NCBI GenBank assembly: GCA_048498955.1
Contig: JBEHWZ010000015.1
Location: 23,437 to 87,436, forward strand
Source: Verrucomicrobiota bacterium
GTDB taxonomy: Bacteria; Verrucomicrobiota; Verrucomicrobiia; Opitutales; Opitutaceae
Reading direction: 5' to 3'
Length of the DNA: 64,000 bases
Below the pieces are notes generated by a model. The model saw nothing but the letters and a program-made list of their open reading frames with translations, did not search any database and was not told the DNA's origin. The stretch's first letter is position 1, and every line of letters starts with the position of its first letter. Below are positions 21,658 to 59,944 of this stretch, piece by piece. The position numbers were made by a program, and so were the translations under genes.

Positions 21658-22197
21658 ATGCCTGCTGCCACCTCCGAAATCTCCGAAGCCCTGATCCGCC
21701 ATAATATCAACCGCGCGGTCTGCGACGTTTTCAAAACGATGCTGCACCGTACCGCGTCCCTCGGCTCTGCCTTCAGCCCGGGCAGTGCTGATCCGCATCC
21801 GTCCGGCCTGCCGGGCGACCAGGCGGCCACGAACCCGCAAGTGGTCGGCACCGTGGGCTTCCTCGGCGAGGCCAACGGCCTCATCTATCTTTATTTCGAC
21901 GGCAACTTCGCGCGCAGCTGCACCGGCCACCTGCTCGGCATGACCGACGCCGAGGTCGACGAGGCCGGCGAGGAAGTGATCAACGACGCCATCGGCGAGA
22001 TCACCAACATGACCGTCGGCAGCTTCAAGAACGGTTTGGCCGACCAGGGCTACCCCTGCAAGCTGACCATCCCGTCCATCCTGCGCGGACGCAATTTCTG
22101 CGTCGAACCCATCAGCGATTCGCAGCGCTTCATCTACGTTTTCGAAACCGAGGGGCAGAAGCTCATTGCCGACATCCTCCTCAAGACCGGCGAATAA
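21658..22197 (+). CDS. cheX: CheX-family chemotaxis phosphatase
   Basis: VVGTVGFLGEANG, DAIGEITNMTVG (ExxN), LTIPSIL. Confidence 0.85.
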   Translation: MPAATSEISEALIRHNINRAVCDVFKTMLHRTASLGSAFSPGSADPHPSGLPGDQAATNPQVVGTVGFLGEANGLIYLYFDGNFARSCTGHLLGMTDAEVDEAGEEVINDAIGEITNMTVGSFKNGLADQGYPCKLTIPSILRGRNFCVEPISDSQRFIYVFETEGQKLIADILLKTGE

Positions 22198-27336: not shown

Positions 27337-29496
27337 ATGTCACTATCCCCTCAACAATTCACGGCACTCGAGGGCGCCGTCAACCGCCTCGCCTCCGAGT
27401 CAGTGCTCGCCAGCGTTGGTCGTGATGACGGCCTCGTGCCGGCCTACAGCCTCGTCGGTGAACTGCGCGATCTCAGCGCCGGTGAACCCGCCCTGAACGA
27501 GCCCATCAGCCAACTGCTTGCCGCCCTCGAGAAAGCTCTCGATACCGCGCAGCCCTTCACCGAGGCCCTCCTGCGCCAGCTGCGCGAGATGGTCGAGTGG
27601 CTCCAGCCCGCGATCGAAAGCGCTCAGAGCGGCGCCGCGATCAAGCCGTTCGGTCAGGCCGCCGCGGCCGCCCCGGCGCGCATGGCCACCAATCCGCCCA
27701 TGGCCGTGGGCGCGAAGCACGAGAAGTGCGACGTGCTCATGGACCTCAAGCTGGCCGAGAACCAGGAGCTCCTCGTCGAGTTCCACGCCGAGGTGGTCGA
27801 CCATCTCCAGCAGATCGAGGCCGCGCTGCTCCAGCTCGACCAGCAGCCCGACAATCCCGAGGCGCTGAATTCCATTTTCCGCTCGTTCCATACGATCAAG
27901 GGCAACGCCGGTTTCCTCGGCCTGGTGCCGATGCAGACGCTCGCCCACGAGGTGGAGTCGCTGCTCGACCTCGCGCGCAACCACAAGATCCAGCTCAGCT
28001 CGATCATCATCACCGAGATTCTCCGCAGCCGCGATACGCTGCAGGCGCTCACGCAGCAGGTCGGCGTCGCCCTCGAAAGCGGCCAGGCTCCGACAACCGT
28101 CATTCCCGTCAGCCACCTGGTCAACGCGGTCAAGCAACTCGCCGCCTCCGGTGGCGCCGCCCCGGCCGCTTCGGCCGCCGCGCCGAAGGTCGAGGCGACC
28201 CCGGTCGCGGCCCAGCCGGTCGAAATCGCCCTGCCGGAAGCCCCGGGGCTTGCCCCGGTGACGCCGATCGAGACCGCCGCGCCCGCGAAGGCCGCTGCGC
28301 CCGTCGCTGCTGCTGCCGGACATGACAAGGCCGCGCCTTCGGGCCAAACCGTGCGCGTCAACACCGAGAAGCTCGATTCCCTGATGGATGTCGTGGGCGA
28401 GCTCGTGATCGTGCAAAGCCAGATCATGGAGTCGTCCCGCGCGCTCGGAAACAATGGCTCTCCGCTGCAGCGCAACGTTTCCCAGCTTCTCCGCATCACG
28501 AAGGAACTCCAGCACACCGCGATGGCGCTGCGCATGATTCCGATCAAGCCGACCTTCCAGAAGATGGAGCGTCTCGCGCGCGATCTCGCGCGCAGCTGCG
28601 TGAAGAAGGTGCAGTTCTCCACCGAAGGTGAAGACACCGAACTCGACCGCACCGTGGTCGAGGAAATCGCCGACCCGATGGTACACATGGTGCGCAACGC
28701 CATGGATCACGGCCTCGAGGGACCGGAAGAGCGCGTCGCCGCCGGCAAGCCCGAGACGGGCACCGTGCACCTCAGCGCCTATCACCAGGGCAGCAACATC
28801 GTCATCGAGCTCCGCGACGACGGTCGCGGCATCAATCCCGATAAGATCTACAAGAAGGCCGTTGAGAAGGGCGTTATCGCCCCGAACGCGCAGCTCACCC
28901 GCGAGGAAATCTTCGCGCTCATCTTCGCGCCCGGTTTCTCCACCGCCGAGAAGGTCACGGCCGTTTCCGGCCGCGGCGTCGGCATGGACGTCGTGAAGCG
29001 CAACATCGAAAAGCTGCGCGGCAAGATCGAGATCGAGTCCGAGGTGGGCAAGGGCTCCGTCTTCAAGATCAAGCTCCCGCTCACCATGGCCATCATCGAC
29101 GGTCTCGTGGTGCGCGTCGGCTCCGACAAATTCATCCTGCCCGCCACGTCGGTGCAGATGGCGCTGCGTCCGACGCAGGAGTCCATCACCACGATCCAGG
29201 GCTCCGGCGAGGTGCTCGAGCTCCGCGGCCGCATCCTGCCGCTGCACCGCCTGCACCGCCGCTTCGGCATCCCGGCCGACACCGAGAAGCCGTGGGAAGG
29301 CATTGTCGTCATCCTCGAGCACTCCGGCAAACAGTCCGCGCTGCTCGTCGACGAAATGGTCAGCAAGCAGGAAGTCGTCATCAAGAACCTCGGCTCCTTC
29401 ATGCAGGGCCTGCCCGGTGTGTCCGGCGGCGCGATCCTCGGTGACGGCAACATCGCTCTCATCCTCGATCCGGCCTCGATCCTGACGGCGGCCTAA
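27337..29496 (+). CDS. cheA: Chemotaxis histidine kinase CheA
   Basis: IFRSFHTIKG (P1), VRVNTEKLDSL (P3), HMVRNAMDHG, SGRGVGMDVV (P4), CheW-like P5. Confidence 0.96.
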   Translation: MSLSPQQFTALEGAVNRLASESVLASVGRDDGLVPAYSLVGELRDLSAGEPALNEPISQLLAALEKALDTAQPFTEALLRQLREMVEWLQPAIESAQSGAAIKPFGQAAAAAPARMATNPPMAVGAKHEKCDVLMDLKLAENQELLVEFHAEVVDHLQQIEAALLQLDQQPDNPEALNSIFRSFHTIKGNAGFLGLVPMQTLAHEVESLLDLARNHKIQLSSIIITEILRSRDTLQALTQQVGVALESGQAPTTVIPVSHLVNAVKQLAASGGAAPAASAAAPKVEATPVAAQPVEIALPEAPGLAPVTPIETAAPAKAAAPVAAAAGHDKAAPSGQTVRVNTEKLDSLMDVVGELVIVQSQIMESSRALGNNGSPLQRNVSQLLRITKELQHTAMALRMIPIKPTFQKMERLARDLARSCVKKVQFSTEGEDTELDRTVVEEIADPMVHMVRNAMDHGLEGPEERVAAGKPETGTVHLSAYHQGSNIVIELRDDGRGINPDKIYKKAVEKGVIAPNAQLTREEIFALIFAPGFSTAEKVTAVSGRGVGMDVVKRNIEKLRGKIEIESEVGKGSVFKIKLPLTMAIIDGLVVRVGSDKFILPATSVQMALRPTQESITTIQGSGEVLELRGRILPLHRLHRRFGIPADTEKPWEGIVVILEHSGKQSALLVDEMVSKQEVVIKNLGSFMQGLPGVSGGAILGDGNIALILDPASILTAA

Positions 29497-29506
29497 TTCC
29501 CGACCC

Positions 29507-30382
29507 ATGAGCCTTCCGACTCCCCCGACCCTCGAACAGGTTTGCGCCGCCGCGCTCAAGCTGCCGTGCGCGCCCTCGCTGCTGCCGCGCCTCGCCGAGG
29601 CCCTGCAAAGCGACTCGAGCTCGTCGCAACAGATCGAACGGCTCATCACCCTGGATCCCTCGCTTGCCGCCTCCACGCTGCGCCTTGCCAACTCGGCGGC
29701 CGTCAGCCGCGGCAAGGTTGAGACCGTCGAGGAAGCCGTCTTCCGCCTGGGCGCCCGCGAAATCTACCGTCTCGCCGCGCTCGCACTCGTCGGCCGCTGG
29801 GAATCCCAGCTCGGTGACCTGCGCTGGGGTGCCGGCGATTTCAGCCGCCACGCGCTCTGCACCGCCATCGCCGCCGAGGTGCTGGCCGGCACGACCGAGC
29901 GGCTGGACCCGCAGATCGCCTACACCGCCGGCCTCGTGTGCGACCTGGGCAAGCTGACCCTCGCGCACAACTGCCATGCCTTTTATCCGGCCATCCGCAC
30001 GCACATCGAGCAGACGCAGTGCACCTGGGAACAGGGCGAGCAGGCCGTGCTCGGTTACCATCACGCCGATGCCGGCATGCGCCTGCTGAAGGCGTGGAGT
30101 TTCCCGGCGCTGTTCATCAAGGCCGTCGAGCACCAGTTCCAACCCGCGAATGCGCCGGCCGAGGCGCTGCCGCTGCTCGCGCACCTGCACGCCGCCAAGT
30201 ACCTCGCGACGTCGATGGGCCCCGGCATGCTCGAGGAAGGTTTCAAGACGACGATCCACGGCGCCTTCCTGAAGGAGTGGGGCTTCGCCGCCGAAACCCT
30301 CGAAGCCGCGATGCCGATCGTCCTCGAGCGCGCCCAGGCCCGTTTGGGCGAGCGCCTCAGCGTCGGCGCGATCGCGATTTGA
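29507..30382 (+). CDS. HDOD domain protein
   Basis: LPCAPSLL, DPSLAASTLRLANS, AGLVCDLGK, LGYHHADAG, WSFP. Confidence 0.88.
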   Translation: MSLPTPPTLEQVCAAALKLPCAPSLLPRLAEALQSDSSSSQQIERLITLDPSLAASTLRLANSAAVSRGKVETVEEAVFRLGAREIYRLAALALVGRWESQLGDLRWGAGDFSRHALCTAIAAEVLAGTTERLDPQIAYTAGLVCDLGKLTLAHNCHAFYPAIRTHIEQTQCTWEQGEQAVLGYHHADAGMRLLKAWSFPALFIKAVEHQFQPANAPAEALPLLAHLHAAKYLATSMGPGMLEEGFKTTIHGAFLKEWGFAAETLEAAMPIVLERAQARLGERLSVGAIAI

Positions 30383-30937
30383 TCAACGATGCGGGTTGCG
30401 CTGTTTTCTTTGCGCGAGTTGTTCGTTTAAAACCTGAACGACAAAATAGCGGTGCGGGGCGGACAAGGCCGGGCCAACCACGGCGCGTTCGTTGCCATCA
30501 AGATAGATGGCCCATCTTTTTTTTCTGCGTTTGACGATTGAATCAATCTGCTCGCTGACCGAATCGATCGCAGTCCAATCGTAGGCGCGTGTTTTGCCGA
30601 TCGGCTGGATGCCGCTGAAATAATGCAGGGTGTCGCCTTGCAATTCGAAACAGACTTGTCCGGCGACGCTCATCAAGGCGTCCCGCAAAAGAAAAGCCGA
30701 GGCGACGAGGGCAAATATTCCGAAGAGCAGCGAAGAAATTTCGAATGCATCTCGCGTGATCGCGCCAGAGAAGGAACCTAAGACGATTCCCGACCACAGG
30801 GTCGCGAACGGGATCAGGAGAAAAGCCTCCGCTGATCGAGTGGAGCATTCGATGCTGAAGCCGTCGGGGGCTTCACTGTAATTTATGCCGGCCGGCACGA
30901 CGAGCGTGCGCGAATCTGTCAGAAGAATCTCTTTCAA
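30383..30937 (-). CDS. Hypothetical membrane protein (TTG start), lower GC
   Basis: 184 aa with two hydrophobic segments then a beta-rich tail; stop abuts HDOD stop. Confidence 0.55.
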   Translation of the reverse strand: MKEILLTDSRTLVVPAGINYSEAPDGFSIECSTRSAEAFLLIPFATLWSGIVLGSFSGAITRDAFEISSLLFGIFALVASAFLLRDALMSVAGQVCFELQGDTLHYFSGIQPIGKTRAYDWTAIDSVSEQIDSIVKRRKKRWAIYLDGNERAVVGPALSAPHRYFVVQVLNEQLAQRKQRNPHR

Positions 30938-31123
30938 TTATTGCGAACTACAGGGGAATAAAACGCCCTCTCTACCGACGATTCAATAAGGATTTTTTTG
31001 ATCAGCTAGGTTCTCCAATTCACGGGGACCCAATAGGGTACTTTGCTTCGGGTTAGAAATGGCCAACGGCGAATGCCCAACGGCCGATAAAATACCCCGC
31101 CTGTCAAAGCGGAACTCGCCGCC

Positions 31124-31648
31124 TTAAGCGGCCAGCGACACCTGGCTCTTCCCCTGCGGCGTAATCAAATTCACCAGGCCGGTGCTGAGCTCGAGGTGCA
31201 CGGTGCGGCTGATCGATCCGCCGGTGTCGGTCTTGAGGACGTTCAGGCGGTTCAGGTTCAGGAAATTCATCGTCACGGTCGTATTGCGCTCGCCGATGCG
31301 GAACGGGTCGGTGCCGCCCATGACGCTGGCGCCGCCAGTGACGAACAGCTTGAGGTTGGGACGCTCGGCCTTCAGGCCGACCAGGGCCTTGAAGAACAGG
31401 GGCAGGCCGGTGTCGGCGAACATCGCCGGCTGGGTCTGCGCTTTCTGCGGCGACACGGCCGCCTCGGGCAGCATGAGGTGCAGGATGCCGCCGCAGCGGG
31501 CGACGGGATCGTAGGCGATCACGCCGATGCAAGAGCCCAGCGCATAGGTGCTGAGGATCGTGCTCTGGTTGTTGGACACGGCCATGTCACCCACGCCAAC
31601 GACGACGCGTTGCGCGAAAATGGAGGCGATGGTGGCGGAGCCGCTCAT
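31124..31648 (-). CDS. cheD: Chemoreceptor glutamine deamidase CheD
   Basis: TYALGSCIGV, GILHLMLP, FADTG, IGERN, DTGGSISRTV. Confidence 0.93.
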   Translation of the reverse strand: MSGSATIASIFAQRVVVGVGDMAVSNNQSTILSTYALGSCIGVIAYDPVARCGGILHLMLPEAAVSPQKAQTQPAMFADTGLPLFFKALVGLKAERPNLKLFVTGGASVMGGTDPFRIGERNTTVTMNFLNLNRLNVLKTDTGGSISRTVHLELSTGLVNLITPQGKSQVSLAA

Positions 31649-31686
31649 GAAAATGTTTTAAAGGAGGAAAGGGTGACGAACTTGAT

Positions 31687-31713
31687 TAAACCTGCGCGGC
31701 GTTGGGCCGATGA
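31687..31713 (+). promoter_or_regulatory. sigma28 promoter with no downstream plus-strand gene
   Basis: TAAA-N15-GCCGATGA. Confidence 0.78.
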
Positions 31714-31719
31714 GAGCAG

Positions 31720-31789
31720 TGTGTAGGTAGTTCAGTCATTGTTTGGTGTGTGTGCGAGGGCCCGCGATCAACGCGGGCCTTCGTTTTTT
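31720..31789 (+). ncRNA. Candidate sigma28-dependent small RNA (~70 nt)
   Basis: Lies between a consensus sigma28 promoter and a plus-strand terminator; no plus-strand ORF. Confidence 0.55.
31755..31789 (+). terminator. Intrinsic terminator, plus strand only
   Basis: 12-bp stem cgagggcccgcg-atcaa-cgcgggccttcg followed by tttttt; no T-run on the minus strand. Confidence 0.85.
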
Positions 31790-31805
31790 CCGGGTAAGGC
31801 GCGCA

Positions 31806-33071
31806 TCAGGAATAAACCAGCAGGCGCTGGCTGATGGGGGCGATTTGGTTGTGATCGCGAATCTTCGCGATCGTGCCGGGCCCGAGCAGCTGGCCTTCGC
31901 CGATGAGCAGCAGGCCGTGCGGGCTGTAGATGCCGCTGGCCAGCACCATGCCGGGCTCGAGTTCGTCGAGCAGGATCTCGCGCACGCTGCGCGGGAGATT
32001 GACCAGGTTGGAAACCTTGAGGAAGAGGCGGATGGCCTCGGGATCGTAGTGCGTGCCCGACTTCGCCATGAGCGCGTCGATCGCCGCCTGCTTGGGCAGG
32101 CCGGATTCGACGTAGCCGACGGCGACCGCGAGGCAGCGCGCACCCCACGGGATGCTCTTGCCGGCGAGGCCGTCCGGATAACCGGAACCGTCGAAGCGCT
32201 CGTGGTGGCCGCGAATGATCGCGCCAACCTCGGGACGCGGGTCGACCAGCGACGCGAGCGTCTGGCTGTACACCGGATGGTTCTGCATCGTGGCGCGTTC
32301 GCGCTCGGTGAGGCCGGCCGGGTTGTTGCGGAAAGTGCGGAGCAGCTCGCGCGGCACGCCGATGAGGCCGAGGTCGCACAGCCACGCGGCGGTGTGCACG
32401 GCGACCTTCTCGACTTCGGAGAAATGCTCGGTCTCGCCCATCTTGCTCGCGAATTCCACGAGCGTCTTCGCCTGGCCGCCGAGGATCGGGTCGTAGGCGG
32501 TGAGAATGCGGCGGCAGAGCTCGAGCGAACTCTCGTAGCGGGTGGAGAGTTCGGTGTTGGCGGCGTCGAGCTTCTGGCGCTCCTGCTGCAGCACCTTGAC
32601 CTGCTCCTCGAGCTGGCCGTTGACGACGGTGAGCTGGGCGTTGAGCTGCTGCGAGCGGGCTTGCAGCACCTCGTTCCGGACGATCAGATCGTGGCGCTGG
32701 ATGGCGTTGCGGACGGTGGCGAGCAGTTCCTCGCGCAACCACGGCTTCGCGACGAAGCGGAAGATTTCGCCCTTGTTGATGGCCTCGACGATCGTGGGCA
32801 GCGCGAGGACGGCGGTGATGAGGATGCGCGACGCGTTCGGGTGGGTCTTGCGGCTCTCGACCAGGAAATCGAGGCCCAGCATCTCGGGCATGCGCTGATC
32901 GGAAATGATGACGGCGAACTGGCGTTCCGCGAGAATGGCGAGGGCCTTGACCGGGCTCGAGCAGGCGACGACGTGGTAGCGTTCGCGTTCCAGCGTTTCC
33001 TTGAGGGCGCCGAGGACGACCGGCTCGTCATCGACGATCAGGATGGTGGGCGTGGGGGAATTCTCATTCAT
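31806..33071 (-). CDS. Response regulator with degenerate HD-GYP domain
   Basis: REC (ILIVDDE, ISDQRMP), coiled coil, HHERFDGSGYPDGL; HD replaced by CD. Confidence 0.88.
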   Translation of the reverse strand: MNENSPTPTILIVDDEPVVLGALKETLERERYHVVACSSPVKALAILAERQFAVIISDQRMPEMLGLDFLVESRKTHPNASRILITAVLALPTIVEAINKGEIFRFVAKPWLREELLATVRNAIQRHDLIVRNEVLQARSQQLNAQLTVVNGQLEEQVKVLQQERQKLDAANTELSTRYESSLELCRRILTAYDPILGGQAKTLVEFASKMGETEHFSEVEKVAVHTAAWLCDLGLIGVPRELLRTFRNNPAGLTERERATMQNHPVYSQTLASLVDPRPEVGAIIRGHHERFDGSGYPDGLAGKSIPWGARCLAVAVGYVESGLPKQAAIDALMAKSGTHYDPEAIRLFLKVSNLVNLPRSVREILLDELEPGMVLASGIYSPHGLLLIGEGQLLGPGTIAKIRDHNQIAPISQRLLVYS

Positions 33072-34164
33072 GGGCGGACGCGATGGACGCGGAAGGGGTG
33101 GAAGACTGGCCAAGCGGGGTAAGGAAGCGGGCGACGAGGTGCGAGGCGACTCGGTCGAGCGGGAGCTGGCGCTGCGCGGCGCCGTTTTCCCACGCGGCCT
33201 TGGGCATGCCGTAGACGACGCACGAGGCTTCGTCCTGGGCGAAGGTCGACGCGCCCTTTTCCTTCAAGCGCAGCAAACCCTCGGCGCCGTCACGGCCCAT
33301 GCCGGTCAGGATGCCGGCGATGGCGTGCGGGCCCGCGCCGCAGTCGGCGGCGGATTTGAAAAGCAGGTCCACGGCCGGGCGCTGGTGCCAGATCTGCGGG
33401 CCGTCGGTCACGCGCACGCGGTAGTGGTCGGTGCACCACGTGAGCATCATGTGGAAATTGCCCGGCGCGATGAGCGCGGTGCCGGGTTCGAGGCGGTCGC
33501 CATCGACGGCTTCGCGCACAGGGAAAGCGCAAATGCCGTTCATGCGGTCGGCGTACGCCTTGGAGAAACCGGCGGGAATGTGCTGCACGATCGCGATGCC
33601 AGGCAGGCCGGCGGGCAGGGAAGTGAGCACTTCGCGCAATGCCTCGGTGCCGCCGGTGGAAGCGCCGAGCAGAATGACGGCGCGCGGGTCGCGACGGAGC
33701 GGGCCGGGGAGGGCGGGGCGGACCTGGACGCTGCCCTGCGGGGCGCCGGCGCGGCGCAAGCGCGCGGCGGCTGCGGCCTTGACGGTCGCGATCAGTTTCG
33801 GGCCGAGCGTGCCGAACGAGGTCGAGCCGCTGGGTTTCCCGAGCACGTCCACCGCGCCGAGGCGCAGTGCCTCAAGGGCGAAATCGGATCCGCGCTGCGT
33901 CAGGGAGCTGAGCACGATGACGGGCATCGGCCGATGCTCCATGAGCAGGCGCAGGAAAGTGAGGCCGTCCATGCGCGGCATTTCCAAGTCGAGCGTGAGC
34001 ACGTCGGGCTGCAGCTCGCGGATGCGGTCGCGCGCCTCGTACGGGTCGCCGGCGGTGCCCACGACCTCGATGGCCTCGTCGCTCGACAGCGCGTCGCTGG
34101 CGATCTTGCGCACGAAGGCGGAGTCGTCGACGACCAGCACGCGAATTTTGGGCGGTACGCTCAT
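33064..34164 (-). CDS. cheB: Chemotaxis methylesterase CheB (REC + esterase)
   Basis: VLVVDDSAFVR, LDLEMP, GASTGG, VQHIP, LTGMGRDGA, VYGMP. Confidence 0.97.
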   Translation of the reverse strand: MSVPPKIRVLVVDDSAFVRKIASDALSSDEAIEVVGTAGDPYEARDRIRELQPDVLTLDLEMPRMDGLTFLRLLMEHRPMPVIVLSSLTQRGSDFALEALRLGAVDVLGKPSGSTSFGTLGPKLIATVKAAAAARLRRAGAPQGSVQVRPALPGPLRRDPRAVILLGASTGGTEALREVLTSLPAGLPGIAIVQHIPAGFSKAYADRMNGICAFPVREAVDGDRLEPGTALIAPGNFHMMLTWCTDHYRVRVTDGPQIWHQRPAVDLLFKSAADCGAGPHAIAGILTGMGRDGAEGLLRLKEKGASTFAQDEASCVVYGMPKAAWENGAAQRQLPLDRVASHLVARFLTPLGQSSTPSASIASAHE

Positions 34165-35009: not shown

Positions 35010-35036
35010 TTATCGGACCAAAACCCTTGGGATTTA
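35010..35036 (-). promoter_or_regulatory. sigma28 promoter of cheR-cheB operon
   Basis: TAAA-N15-TCCGATAA. Confidence 0.82.
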
Positions 35037-55207: not shown

Positions 55208-56020
55208 ATGAAAAGCGCTGCCGTCATGAAAGAAAAAGAAACCAGCAGCACGGATGCAAAGCCCTCGACCGCCGCCTGGCGCGTCTATCAGGGCGTTAAC
55301 ACGTCGGGCGCCATCGATGAAAAGGATTTGATCGAGCGCTTTCTCCCGCTGGTCCGCAATGTTGTGGATCGCATCAAACTCACGCTGCCGCCGCACATCG
55401 ATGCGGACGACCTCTACAGCGTCGGCGTCACCGGCCTCATCGCCGCCGTGCGCAAGTACAACCCGGAGCAGGGGAACACCTTCGCCGGCTACGCCGCCAC
55501 CCGCATTCGCGGCGCCATCCTCGATGAGCTCCGCCGCCTCGACTGGTGCCCGCGCCGCACGCGCGCCCGCGCCCGCAAGCTCAAGGAGTCGATCAACGAT
55601 CTCGAGCAGAAGCTCGGCCGCACCGCGACCGAGGACGAAATTTGCGAGGAAATGGGCGTCAGCCAGGCGGAATACCGCAAGTGGCTCGACGAATCCCGCC
55701 CCGTCACCTTTTTGGCCCTCGATTCCCACGCCATCGGCGAAGAGTCGGAAGGCGCGTCATTGCATGAGTTTCTGGCGGATGAGAACGACGTCACCGGCCG
55801 CGAGAACCTCGAGAAGGACGAGTTGTTAAAACTTCTCACTCAACGGATGGCCGAATTGCCCGATATACCACGGAAGATACTCGCCATGTACTATTTTGAA
55901 AAAATGCGCCTCGCCGAAATCGCTGAAGTCTTCGGCCTGACGGAGTCGCGTATCTGCCAAATCCATTCCCAGACCATTCTCGGCCTGCGTTCCTTCCTGG
56001 GCCGCGCCCGGAACAAGTAA
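55208..56020 (+). CDS. fliA: Flagellar sigma factor sigma28 (FliA/WhiG family)
   Basis: DDLYSVGVTGLI, RIRGAILDELRRLDW, EIAEVFGLTESRICQIH. Confidence 0.96.
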   Translation: MKSAAVMKEKETSSTDAKPSTAAWRVYQGVNTSGAIDEKDLIERFLPLVRNVVDRIKLTLPPHIDADDLYSVGVTGLIAAVRKYNPEQGNTFAGYAATRIRGAILDELRRLDWCPRRTRARARKLKESINDLEQKLGRTATEDEICEEMGVSQAEYRKWLDESRPVTFLALDSHAIGEESEGASLHEFLADENDVTGRENLEKDELLKLLTQRMAELPDIPRKILAMYYFEKMRLAEIAEVFGLTESRICQIHSQTILGLRSFLGRARNK

Positions 56021-59618: not shown

Positions 59619-59944
59619 AGCGCTGGGCGGAAAGTCCCCTGGCCTGGGTGGTCGCCAACTGATCGCGAAAAAGGCTTCGGTATGGATGGCCGAGCTCCTG
59701 CGAGGCCAACGCACGCCGGCGCAACCCAAGGCCTCGCGGGAGCTCGGCCCTCCACTTTTGTGGCCGGGCGGCCATGGATTTGGGCGACTGGATATCGGCC
59801 CATGGCAGGCCCGGTTTAACGCTAATCGGGCGACTAGGTAAGATTTGCCGCTGACGGTTTCGCTCCCGGGCGGGCAGGGTAGTGCCAAACTGAAAAACTT
59901 TTAAGTATCTATCCTTAGGCACTTAAGGTGTAAACGAAGTCCGT

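Follow-up and report, generated by a model that had tools for sequence, protein, structure and literature searches.

Does the 157-nt spacer between cheD and the neighbouring gene for a REC + HD-GYP response regulator, both on the minus strand, contain a gene of its own, and on what would the product of such a gene act? The question was raised by an initial annotation of the window (the whole stretch of DNA that was analysed, 64,000 nucleotides), which proposed a sigma-28-dependent small RNA on the plus strand of this spacer, antisense to the cheR-cheB-RR-cheD run. On the evidence assembled here from sequence and comparison, 31720..31789 is very likely a real FliA-driven small RNA gene. For the fuller reading, in which a stand-alone, FliA-timed RNA gene pairs with the spacer before cheD and possibly also acts in trans, the chances appear evenly balanced. 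The features on which the argument depends are the following.

31124..31648, minus strand: cheD (Pfam PF03975, E = 2.5e-23), divergent from the RNA gene
31686..31739, minus strand: leader micro-ORF of 17 codons (MTELPTHCSHRPNAAQV) with a CA-rich block upstream; opposed by the RNA over its start region and codons 1-7
31687..31690, plus strand: sigma-28 -35 element TAAA, with a 15-nt spacer (31691-31705) downstream
31706..31713, plus strand: sigma-28 -10 element GCCGATGA, matching GCCGATAA at 7 of 8 positions
31720..31789, plus strand: predicted small RNA of ~70 nt, its start taken from promoter geometry and its 3' end from the terminator
31745..31754, plus strand: conserved GU block GGTGTGTGTG, single-stranded, immediately 5' of the terminator, a candidate seed
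31754..31789, plus strand: intrinsic terminator with a 13-pair stem, a 5-nt loop and T6 (stem-loop 31754-31784, T6 31784-31789)
31806..33113, minus strand: REC + HD-GYP response regulator (Pfam HD_5 and Response_reg), converging on the RNA gene
35010..35036, minus strand: sigma-28-type promoter TAAA-N15-TCCGATAA, 18 nt before the cheR ATG
55208..56020, plus strand: fliA (sigma-28), followed by motA (TIGR02479, 228 bits against a cut-off of 189.6 bits)

The spacer, in which the G+C content drops to 0.46, is part of a run of minus-strand genes. Both cheB and cheR lie upstream of the HD-GYP gene on the same strand, and the stop codon of the REC + HD-GYP regulator is located 16 nt past the T-run of the predicted RNA. 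This regulator also matched the NCBIfam model of the NosR-family c-di-GMP phosphodiesterase, with a score below the cut-off. On the plus strand, cheA (27337-29496) and an HDOD gene (29507-30382) are convergent with the minus-strand genes. The genes flanking the site are all on the minus strand, as originally described; on the plus strand the only ORFs are formal ones that extend over the site (31196-31726 and 31743-33122), neither of which has a Pfam match.

Two further observations concern the immediate neighbourhood. A 740-bp stretch with a G+C content of 0.42-0.60 (30383-31123) separates the convergent HDOD gene and cheD, and its longest ORF (30383-30937, minus strand, 184 aa) has no Pfam match. 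At 31662-31726 on the plus strand, a perfect AGGAGG is followed 6 nt later by a GTG that opens a 17-codon ORF (MTNLIKPARRWADESSV); the complement of this sequence is the CT-rich cheD leader. The ORF (31673-31726) was considered as a coding candidate and rejected, being upstream of the predicted RNA start and absent from relatives.

The putative promoter agrees with the sigma-28 consensus TAAA-N15-GCCGATAA at 11 of 12 positions and was found on the plus strand within 1-2 nt of where it had first been placed. Transcription from sigma-28 promoters starts about 7 nt past the -10 element, which sets the predicted 5' end of the RNA. The shorter motif TAAA-N15-GCCGAT is present in six copies in the window as opposed to 0.06 expected, a 100-fold enrichment, and none of 100 shuffles reached six. 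Looser promoter matches number 17 in the 4.59-Mb genome, and seven of these are inside the 64-kb flagellar/chemotaxis window. Sister sites were located 18-36 nt upstream of the ATGs of a FliD-like gene (presumably so, as read from its N-terminus), a cheX-like gene at 21658, cheA (27337) and cheR (34991).

Since fliA is encoded in the window and the motif is enriched before late genes, this lineage uses the classical sigma-28 consensus. Judged by its sequence, the 31687 site is equal in quality to the sites of bona fide late genes, and the sigma-28 dependence first proposed gains support from fliA itself and from the same promoter type before fliD, cheA and cheR. The site before cheR (35010..35036) is probably the promoter of the cheR-cheB-RR-cheD transcript that the RNA would oppose, and this operon is therefore likely to be FliA-dependent itself. 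Another exact TAAA-N15-GCCGAT was noted at 59794-59818 on the minus strand. The sequence downstream of it, to ~59650, is without a convincing ORF, and the site leads into a long inverted repeat (GGCCGAGCTCCCGCGAGGCC ... GGCCTCGCAGGAGCTCGGCC) plus CTTTTTC; it may drive a second FliA-dependent non-coding transcript.

The predicted RNA begins with 34 nt (31720-31753) that are 82% G+U and mostly unpaired in the MFE fold, in agreement with the G/U-rich sequence of about 35 nt reported at the outset. Folding of 31719-31789 gave an MFE of -27.7 kcal/mol (z = -3.7); no element of the fold other than the terminator is stable. The stem-loop, GCGAGGGCCCGCG-ATCAA-CGCGGGCCTTCGT, contains 13 pairs where 12 had been counted, 10 of them G-C and 2 G·U. 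On the minus strand the hairpin is followed by CGCACACACACC and has no U-run after it; the element therefore terminates plus-strand RNA only, as had been claimed. An Rfam search of 30000-33000 at E <= 10 returned noise only, the best score being 19.9 bits against a gathering score of 105. With a promoter and a terminator of its own and no Rfam match, the site conforms to the description of a self-contained non-coding unit of ~70 nt.

When relatives were searched at the DNA level, the match to the two nearest genomes was seen to start exactly at TAAA. A covariance model built from six sequences gave full-length matches, promoter included, in 13 of the 65 genomes of the genus. A 22-base pattern run over 185,579 species genomes returned nine hits, all in Verrucomicrobiota records, of which six are titled Opitutales, Lacunisphaera or Oleiharenicola and eight pass the covariance model; the same pattern gave nine hits in metagenomes, seven of which pass. 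The 13 genus genomes and the seven metagenome contigs constitute the 20 distinct homologues referred to below. The predicted RNA measures about 55-85 nt in the relatives.

The -35 element is TAAA in 18 of the 20 homologues and TGAA or TCAA in the remaining two, with T4, A6 and A7 invariant. In the -10 element, CCGAT is invariant (20/20) and the preceding G is kept in all except one (19/20). The promoter spacer has a variable sequence but is 15 nt long in every homologue. Downstream of the -10 element the sequence is variable, with length differences of 0-40 nt, and the GUGUGUG block falls in invariant or near-invariant columns of the alignment. Read from the alignment, this combination of near-invariant promoter hexamers, a free spacer and a near-invariant GU block is that of a selected promoter and a selected 3' half of the RNA.

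The terminator stem was conserved as a structure. The consensus stem has 14 pairs, six of them with compensatory changes, and 96.4% of its cells are paired, compared to 86.7 ± 1.4% with shuffled partners (96.4% was attained in 0 of 500 shuffles) and 37-55% of stem cells in slid-partner controls. Over the 20 sequences the stem cells comprise 249 Watson-Crick pairs, 20 G·U pairs and one A·C. A T-run follows the stem in 20/20 sequences, and an A-run precedes it in 0/20. Because of the 20 G·U cells as opposed to a single A·C, and because the T-run is on the plus side only, the hairpin is taken to be maintained in the plus-strand transcript, and this strand-specific evidence counts against readings confined to the minus strand. 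Conservation and covariation in relatives had been named as a check on the proposed unit, which a promoter and terminator without conservation would have refuted; promoter and terminator proved to be kept in all 20 sequences, around a variable spacer and with compensatory changes in the stem.

The RNA gene lies directly upstream of cheD, pointing away from it, at 20 of 20 loci. An HD-GYP gene converges on the terminator in 14 of the 20; in G081 the contig does not extend to that side. The promoter, the GU block and the terminator are retained in five short-type homologues, namely G061, G088, G072 and two contigs from metagenomes; the HD-GYP gene is not upstream at these loci, and in the two for which the flank was read (G061 and G088) a co-directional gene is found downstream in its place. 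In four of the five the CA block is not followed by an ATG, and the ORF in G088 ends short of cheD. In short-type homologues (L040:1501-1576 (-) and G061), GGCGCACCGAA, the sequence just past the T-run, complements the GU block plus 5' flank (GGUUCGGUGUG), and a read-through transcript would therefore sequester the GU block.

On the opposite strand the order is hairpin-CGCACACACACCAAACA-ATG, with the ATG of the micro-ORF at 31739-31737, and the 17-aa micro-ORF translates as initially given. Base by base, the predicted RNA (31720-31789) is the complement of the spacer, from the hairpin through the CA-rich start region and the AUG to the seventh codon. The RNA had been said to oppose the whole micro-ORF; this is correct for the start region and these seven codons, and the remaining codons lie under the RNA promoter.

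Fourteen of the 20 homologues have, on the opposite strand, a CA block with an ATG 4-13 nt downstream. In 11 of these 14 the leader ORF is open over 119-350 nt and stops either at the TGA of an ATGA that overlaps the cheD start or 6 nt before this start, while the other frames of the same spacers contain one to eight stops in nearly every case. Each leader ORF stays open in 6-54% of dinucleotide-preserving shuffles, so that the 11 open frames of 14 compare with a summed expectation of ~3-4.5 of 14, a contrast that relatedness inflates. The distance from this ATG to cheD belongs to one class modulo 3 over eight different lengths. The leader ORF in the window's genome stops 38 nt before cheD, and it is short or broken also in G081 and G088; with only 17 codons and this early stop, any direct coupling to cheD would thus be weaker here than in relatives.

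The possibility that the minus-strand micro-ORF encodes a conserved small protein was rejected, as the peptides are unrelated and GC3 is not raised. Leader-ORF GC is ~0.6 at codon positions 1, 2 and 3, compared to a GC3 of 0.79-0.90 in real genes, and this flat profile argues against a conventional protein. The window's genome and the relative nearest to it use different frames, and one conserved stretch of DNA is translated as NPFKF..ETTQ in some of the sequences and as ESVQVPP in others. We read the leader ORF as selected for the passage of ribosomes up to cheD and not for a protein. The micro-ORF, originally offered as the alternative to an RNA, therefore survives in part: in relatives it usually runs to the cheD start, and its peptide is not conserved.

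No Shine-Dalgarno sequence was found in the cheD leader. Only 38 nt separate the -35 element of the RNA gene from the cheD ATG, and the spacer has no minus-strand terminator after the HD-GYP gene; for these two reasons cheD is most likely read from upstream through the RNA gene. The 38-nt gap leaves no apparent room for a separate cheD promoter. In many relatives, an element consisting of (C/T)TAAAGTT or TTCAAGTT, N11 and GACGACT is present on the cheD strand ~90-110 nt upstream of cheD (L036, L039, L040, L041, L043, L076 and L078-L083); it is absent from the window's genome. The element resembles an extended sigma-28 -35 with a divergent -10, and may serve as a promoter for cheD alone, the mRNAs from which would lack the target of the RNA.

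These features suggest the following course of events. RNA polymerase with FliA (sigma-28) would make the ~70-nt RNA late in flagellar/chemotaxis gene expression, and the RNA would be ended by its own intrinsic terminator. An open G/U-rich 5' part, with a block right before the terminator hairpin, is the usual build of a base-pairing regulator. The RNA would be transcribed head-on against the sigma-28-driven cheR-cheB-(REC-HD-GYP)-cheD transcript, and its pairing with the che mRNA could block translation of the leader ORF and/or trigger cleavage of the duplex. CheD output would then be lowered relative to that of the upstream genes, resulting in an incoherent feed-forward loop under FliA. The GU block may additionally pair in trans with CA-rich start regions elsewhere. 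We infer four steps from the sequence: that the RNA is transcribed, that this depends on FliA, that the operon is read through into cheD, and that cheD is affected.

The cis-antisense/leader-ORF mechanism specifically is proposed with some reserve, at rather less than an even chance, and action in trans would be its main alternative or an addition to it. Translation in Verrucomicrobiota is initiated largely without Shine-Dalgarno pairing. A bolder version of the mechanism takes the RNA as a FliA-timed (GU)n 'anti-leader' that masks CA-rich initiation regions, firstly that of the non-conserved leader ORF delivering ribosomes to cheD, and thereby sets CheD stoichiometry within the chemotaxis adaptation system; this version is speculative and, as a whole, distinctly unlikely.

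The alternative that survives best is that the RNA acts in trans only, with the single-stranded GU block UUUGGUGUGUGUG pairing with CA-rich starts of unlinked mRNAs and the adjacency to cheD being functionless inherited synteny. We regard this as possible, if somewhat unlikely. The GU block is near-invariant in 20/20 sequences, the five short-type sequences included, and it forms an unstructured seed beside the terminator, as is typical of trans-acting sRNAs. Because the short-type clade keeps it, the GU block appears to be of use to the RNA as such, either for action in trans or for the binding of a protein, and since the short-type homologues have neither an HD-GYP gene upstream nor an opposite-strand ORF that reaches cheD, a function in cis only cannot account for the whole family. 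Potential partners are present, as CACACAC(C) followed by ATG occurs in many gene leaders (e.g. a nusA-like gene at C5, C2:404997 and C5:259679), the frequency of such leaders in the genome being stated without a background comparison.

Several results weigh against action in trans alone. The flagellar window contains no Watson-Crick complement of at least 8 nt near start codons other than the RNA's own antisense, and pairing with the proximal cheD leader (-110 to +30) was no better than that of shuffled RNA in 20 genomes (z = -0.8 to +2.3). A whole-genome ranking of duplexes was swamped by promiscuous G·U pairing, the RNA being G/U-rich and the genome 65% G+C, and a REP-like repeat contributes about 80 of the 119 CACACACC sites. 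Action in trans only would also leave the 20/20 linkage to cheD without an explanation. As to the initial suggestion that the G/U-rich seed could pair with C/A-rich starts, such leaders are frequent, and no specific trans target was found. The REP-like interspersed element is ~55 bp long and consists of CACACACC-CCGCCCTTCGGGC-ACCCCTCTTCATAGAGGGGACTTCGG with two small hairpins, a variant ending in ...CATCAGCCGTCGCCAAGGCTATGGCCGACAGG. It was observed on contigs C1-C20 of G000, e.g. at C1:58263 (+) and C2:141471 (+), and in G007 upstream of cheD (L039).

A module consisting of UCAGUGUGUGUG and a terminator was also observed 12-20 nt past the stop codons of unrelated genes, at these sites of G000:

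C2, minus strand, offset 140196 on the reverse complement: UCAGUGUGUGUG module
C22:5836, plus strand: UCAGUGUGUGUG module
C1, minus strand, offset 528137: UCAGUGUGUGUG module

In relatives the module is present at L054, L057, L044, L045, L050 and L053, and it is kept at orthologous 3' ends in G008 and G009. From their translations, we take the genes that bear it to be a pyrophosphate-energised pump and a repeat protein ending ...GGDV.V. The GU run was considered as a general feature of terminators in this genome and rejected in that role, as it accompanies 3 of 343 strict terminator-like sites. The UCAGUGUGUGUG modules could be 3'-UTR RNAs that share the GU block.

Transcriptional interference would make the RNA product irrelevant: the FliA promoter would act by collision or promoter occlusion, and the terminator would limit antisense transcription into the HD-GYP gene. 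The unit does lie head-on to an operon that is probably sigma-28-driven, and the RNA varies in its middle part, in sequence as well as in length, both as such a role would allow. However, interference needs neither a conserved GU block nor a covarying, strand-specific hairpin ~35-60 nt past the start, and the short-type clade has no upstream co-oriented gene with which to interfere. We consider this explanation very unlikely.

Highly improbable, too, is a functional element on the minus strand only, made up of the hairpin, the CA-rich start and a leader ORF that feeds ribosomes to cheD, with the plus-strand features as by-products. The leader ORF reaching the cheD start in 11 of 14 homologues, the single class modulo 3 of the ATG distance and a cheD leader without a Shine-Dalgarno sequence all fit such an element. 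TAAA-N15-GCCGAT is nevertheless kept where the ORF is absent or broken (in the window's genome, G081 and the five short-type homologues), and the same conserved DNA is read in different frames among relatives. In addition, the 20 G·U cells of the stem would be A·C mismatches on the minus strand, and the T-run is on the plus side only. A chance co-occurrence of promoter-like and terminator-like motifs in the spacer is scarcely credible, for although short motifs can arise randomly, 0.06 matches are expected per window and the unit is conserved with covariation in 20 sequences.

The preferred reading, a FliA-driven RNA gene directed at the spacer before cheD, can be set beside known systems. The sigma-28-dependent sRNAs of E. 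coli, UhpU, MotR, FliX and FlgO, are UTR-derived and bind Hfq (PMC10578931). They share with the cheD-linked unit the promoter class TAAA-N15-GCCGATAA and, as predicted here, a post-transcriptional fine-tuning laid over the flagellar cascade; in contrast to them, the cheD-linked unit is a stand-alone intergenic gene with its own promoter and terminator, and has no sequence similarity to them. In Campylobacter jejuni, the sRNA CJnc170 (FlmR) is FliA-dependent (PMC11187230), as are the paralogs CjNC1 and CjNC4 (PMC4626219). The candidate would likewise be a small RNA under FliA, in the late flagellar regulon of a bacterium apparently without Hfq. It differs from the Campylobacter RNAs in belonging to another phylum, in having no sequence or Rfam relation to them, and in its fixed position by cheD, antisense to a spacer of the chemotaxis operon. 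A tblastn search of the 95%-complete genome with E. coli Hfq gave nothing better than E = 1, and one of the whole genome with E. coli and B. subtilis CsrA gave no homologue, both being weak tests with short queries.

A literature search returned no description of a regulatory small RNA for Opitutaceae or Verrucomicrobiota, and the cheD-linked RNA appears to be the first FliA-dependent riboregulator proposed for Verrucomicrobiota, with a new family sequence. The candidate can be tested directly, since its limits are well defined, it is conserved, its inducer (FliA) can be predicted, and the spacer before cheD is an obvious target to try first. If confirmed, it would show that sigma-28 riboregulation of motility is not limited to Gamma- and Epsilonproteobacteria and reaches a distant phylum, and would offer a handle on the translation and tuning of internal operon genes whose starts are CA-rich and not of the Shine-Dalgarno type.

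By analogy, the closest mechanistic precedent is CopA/tap/repA of plasmid R1, in which CopA RNA blocks translation of the Tap leader peptide, to which repA is coupled (Blomberg et al. 1992, as cited in PMC8053102). The likeness to R1 and the related IncI/IncB systems is that of a short antisense RNA inside an mRNA leader, lying over the start of a leader ORF; in CopA/tap/repA the leader-ORF stop overlaps or abuts the downstream start, to which the ATGA overlap with cheD in the relatives would correspond. In contrast to the plasmid system, the cheD-linked unit is chromosomal, related to chemotaxis and, by prediction, FliA-timed; no kissing-loop hairpin is evident in its 5' part, and the leader ORF in the window's genome stops 38 nt before cheD. 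If the anti-leader version of the mechanism were true, the regulon would have additional members, marked by the GU module that unrelated genes carry at their 3' ends, and the cheD-linked unit would represent a chromosomal CopA/tap-like circuit wired into the flagellar cascade.
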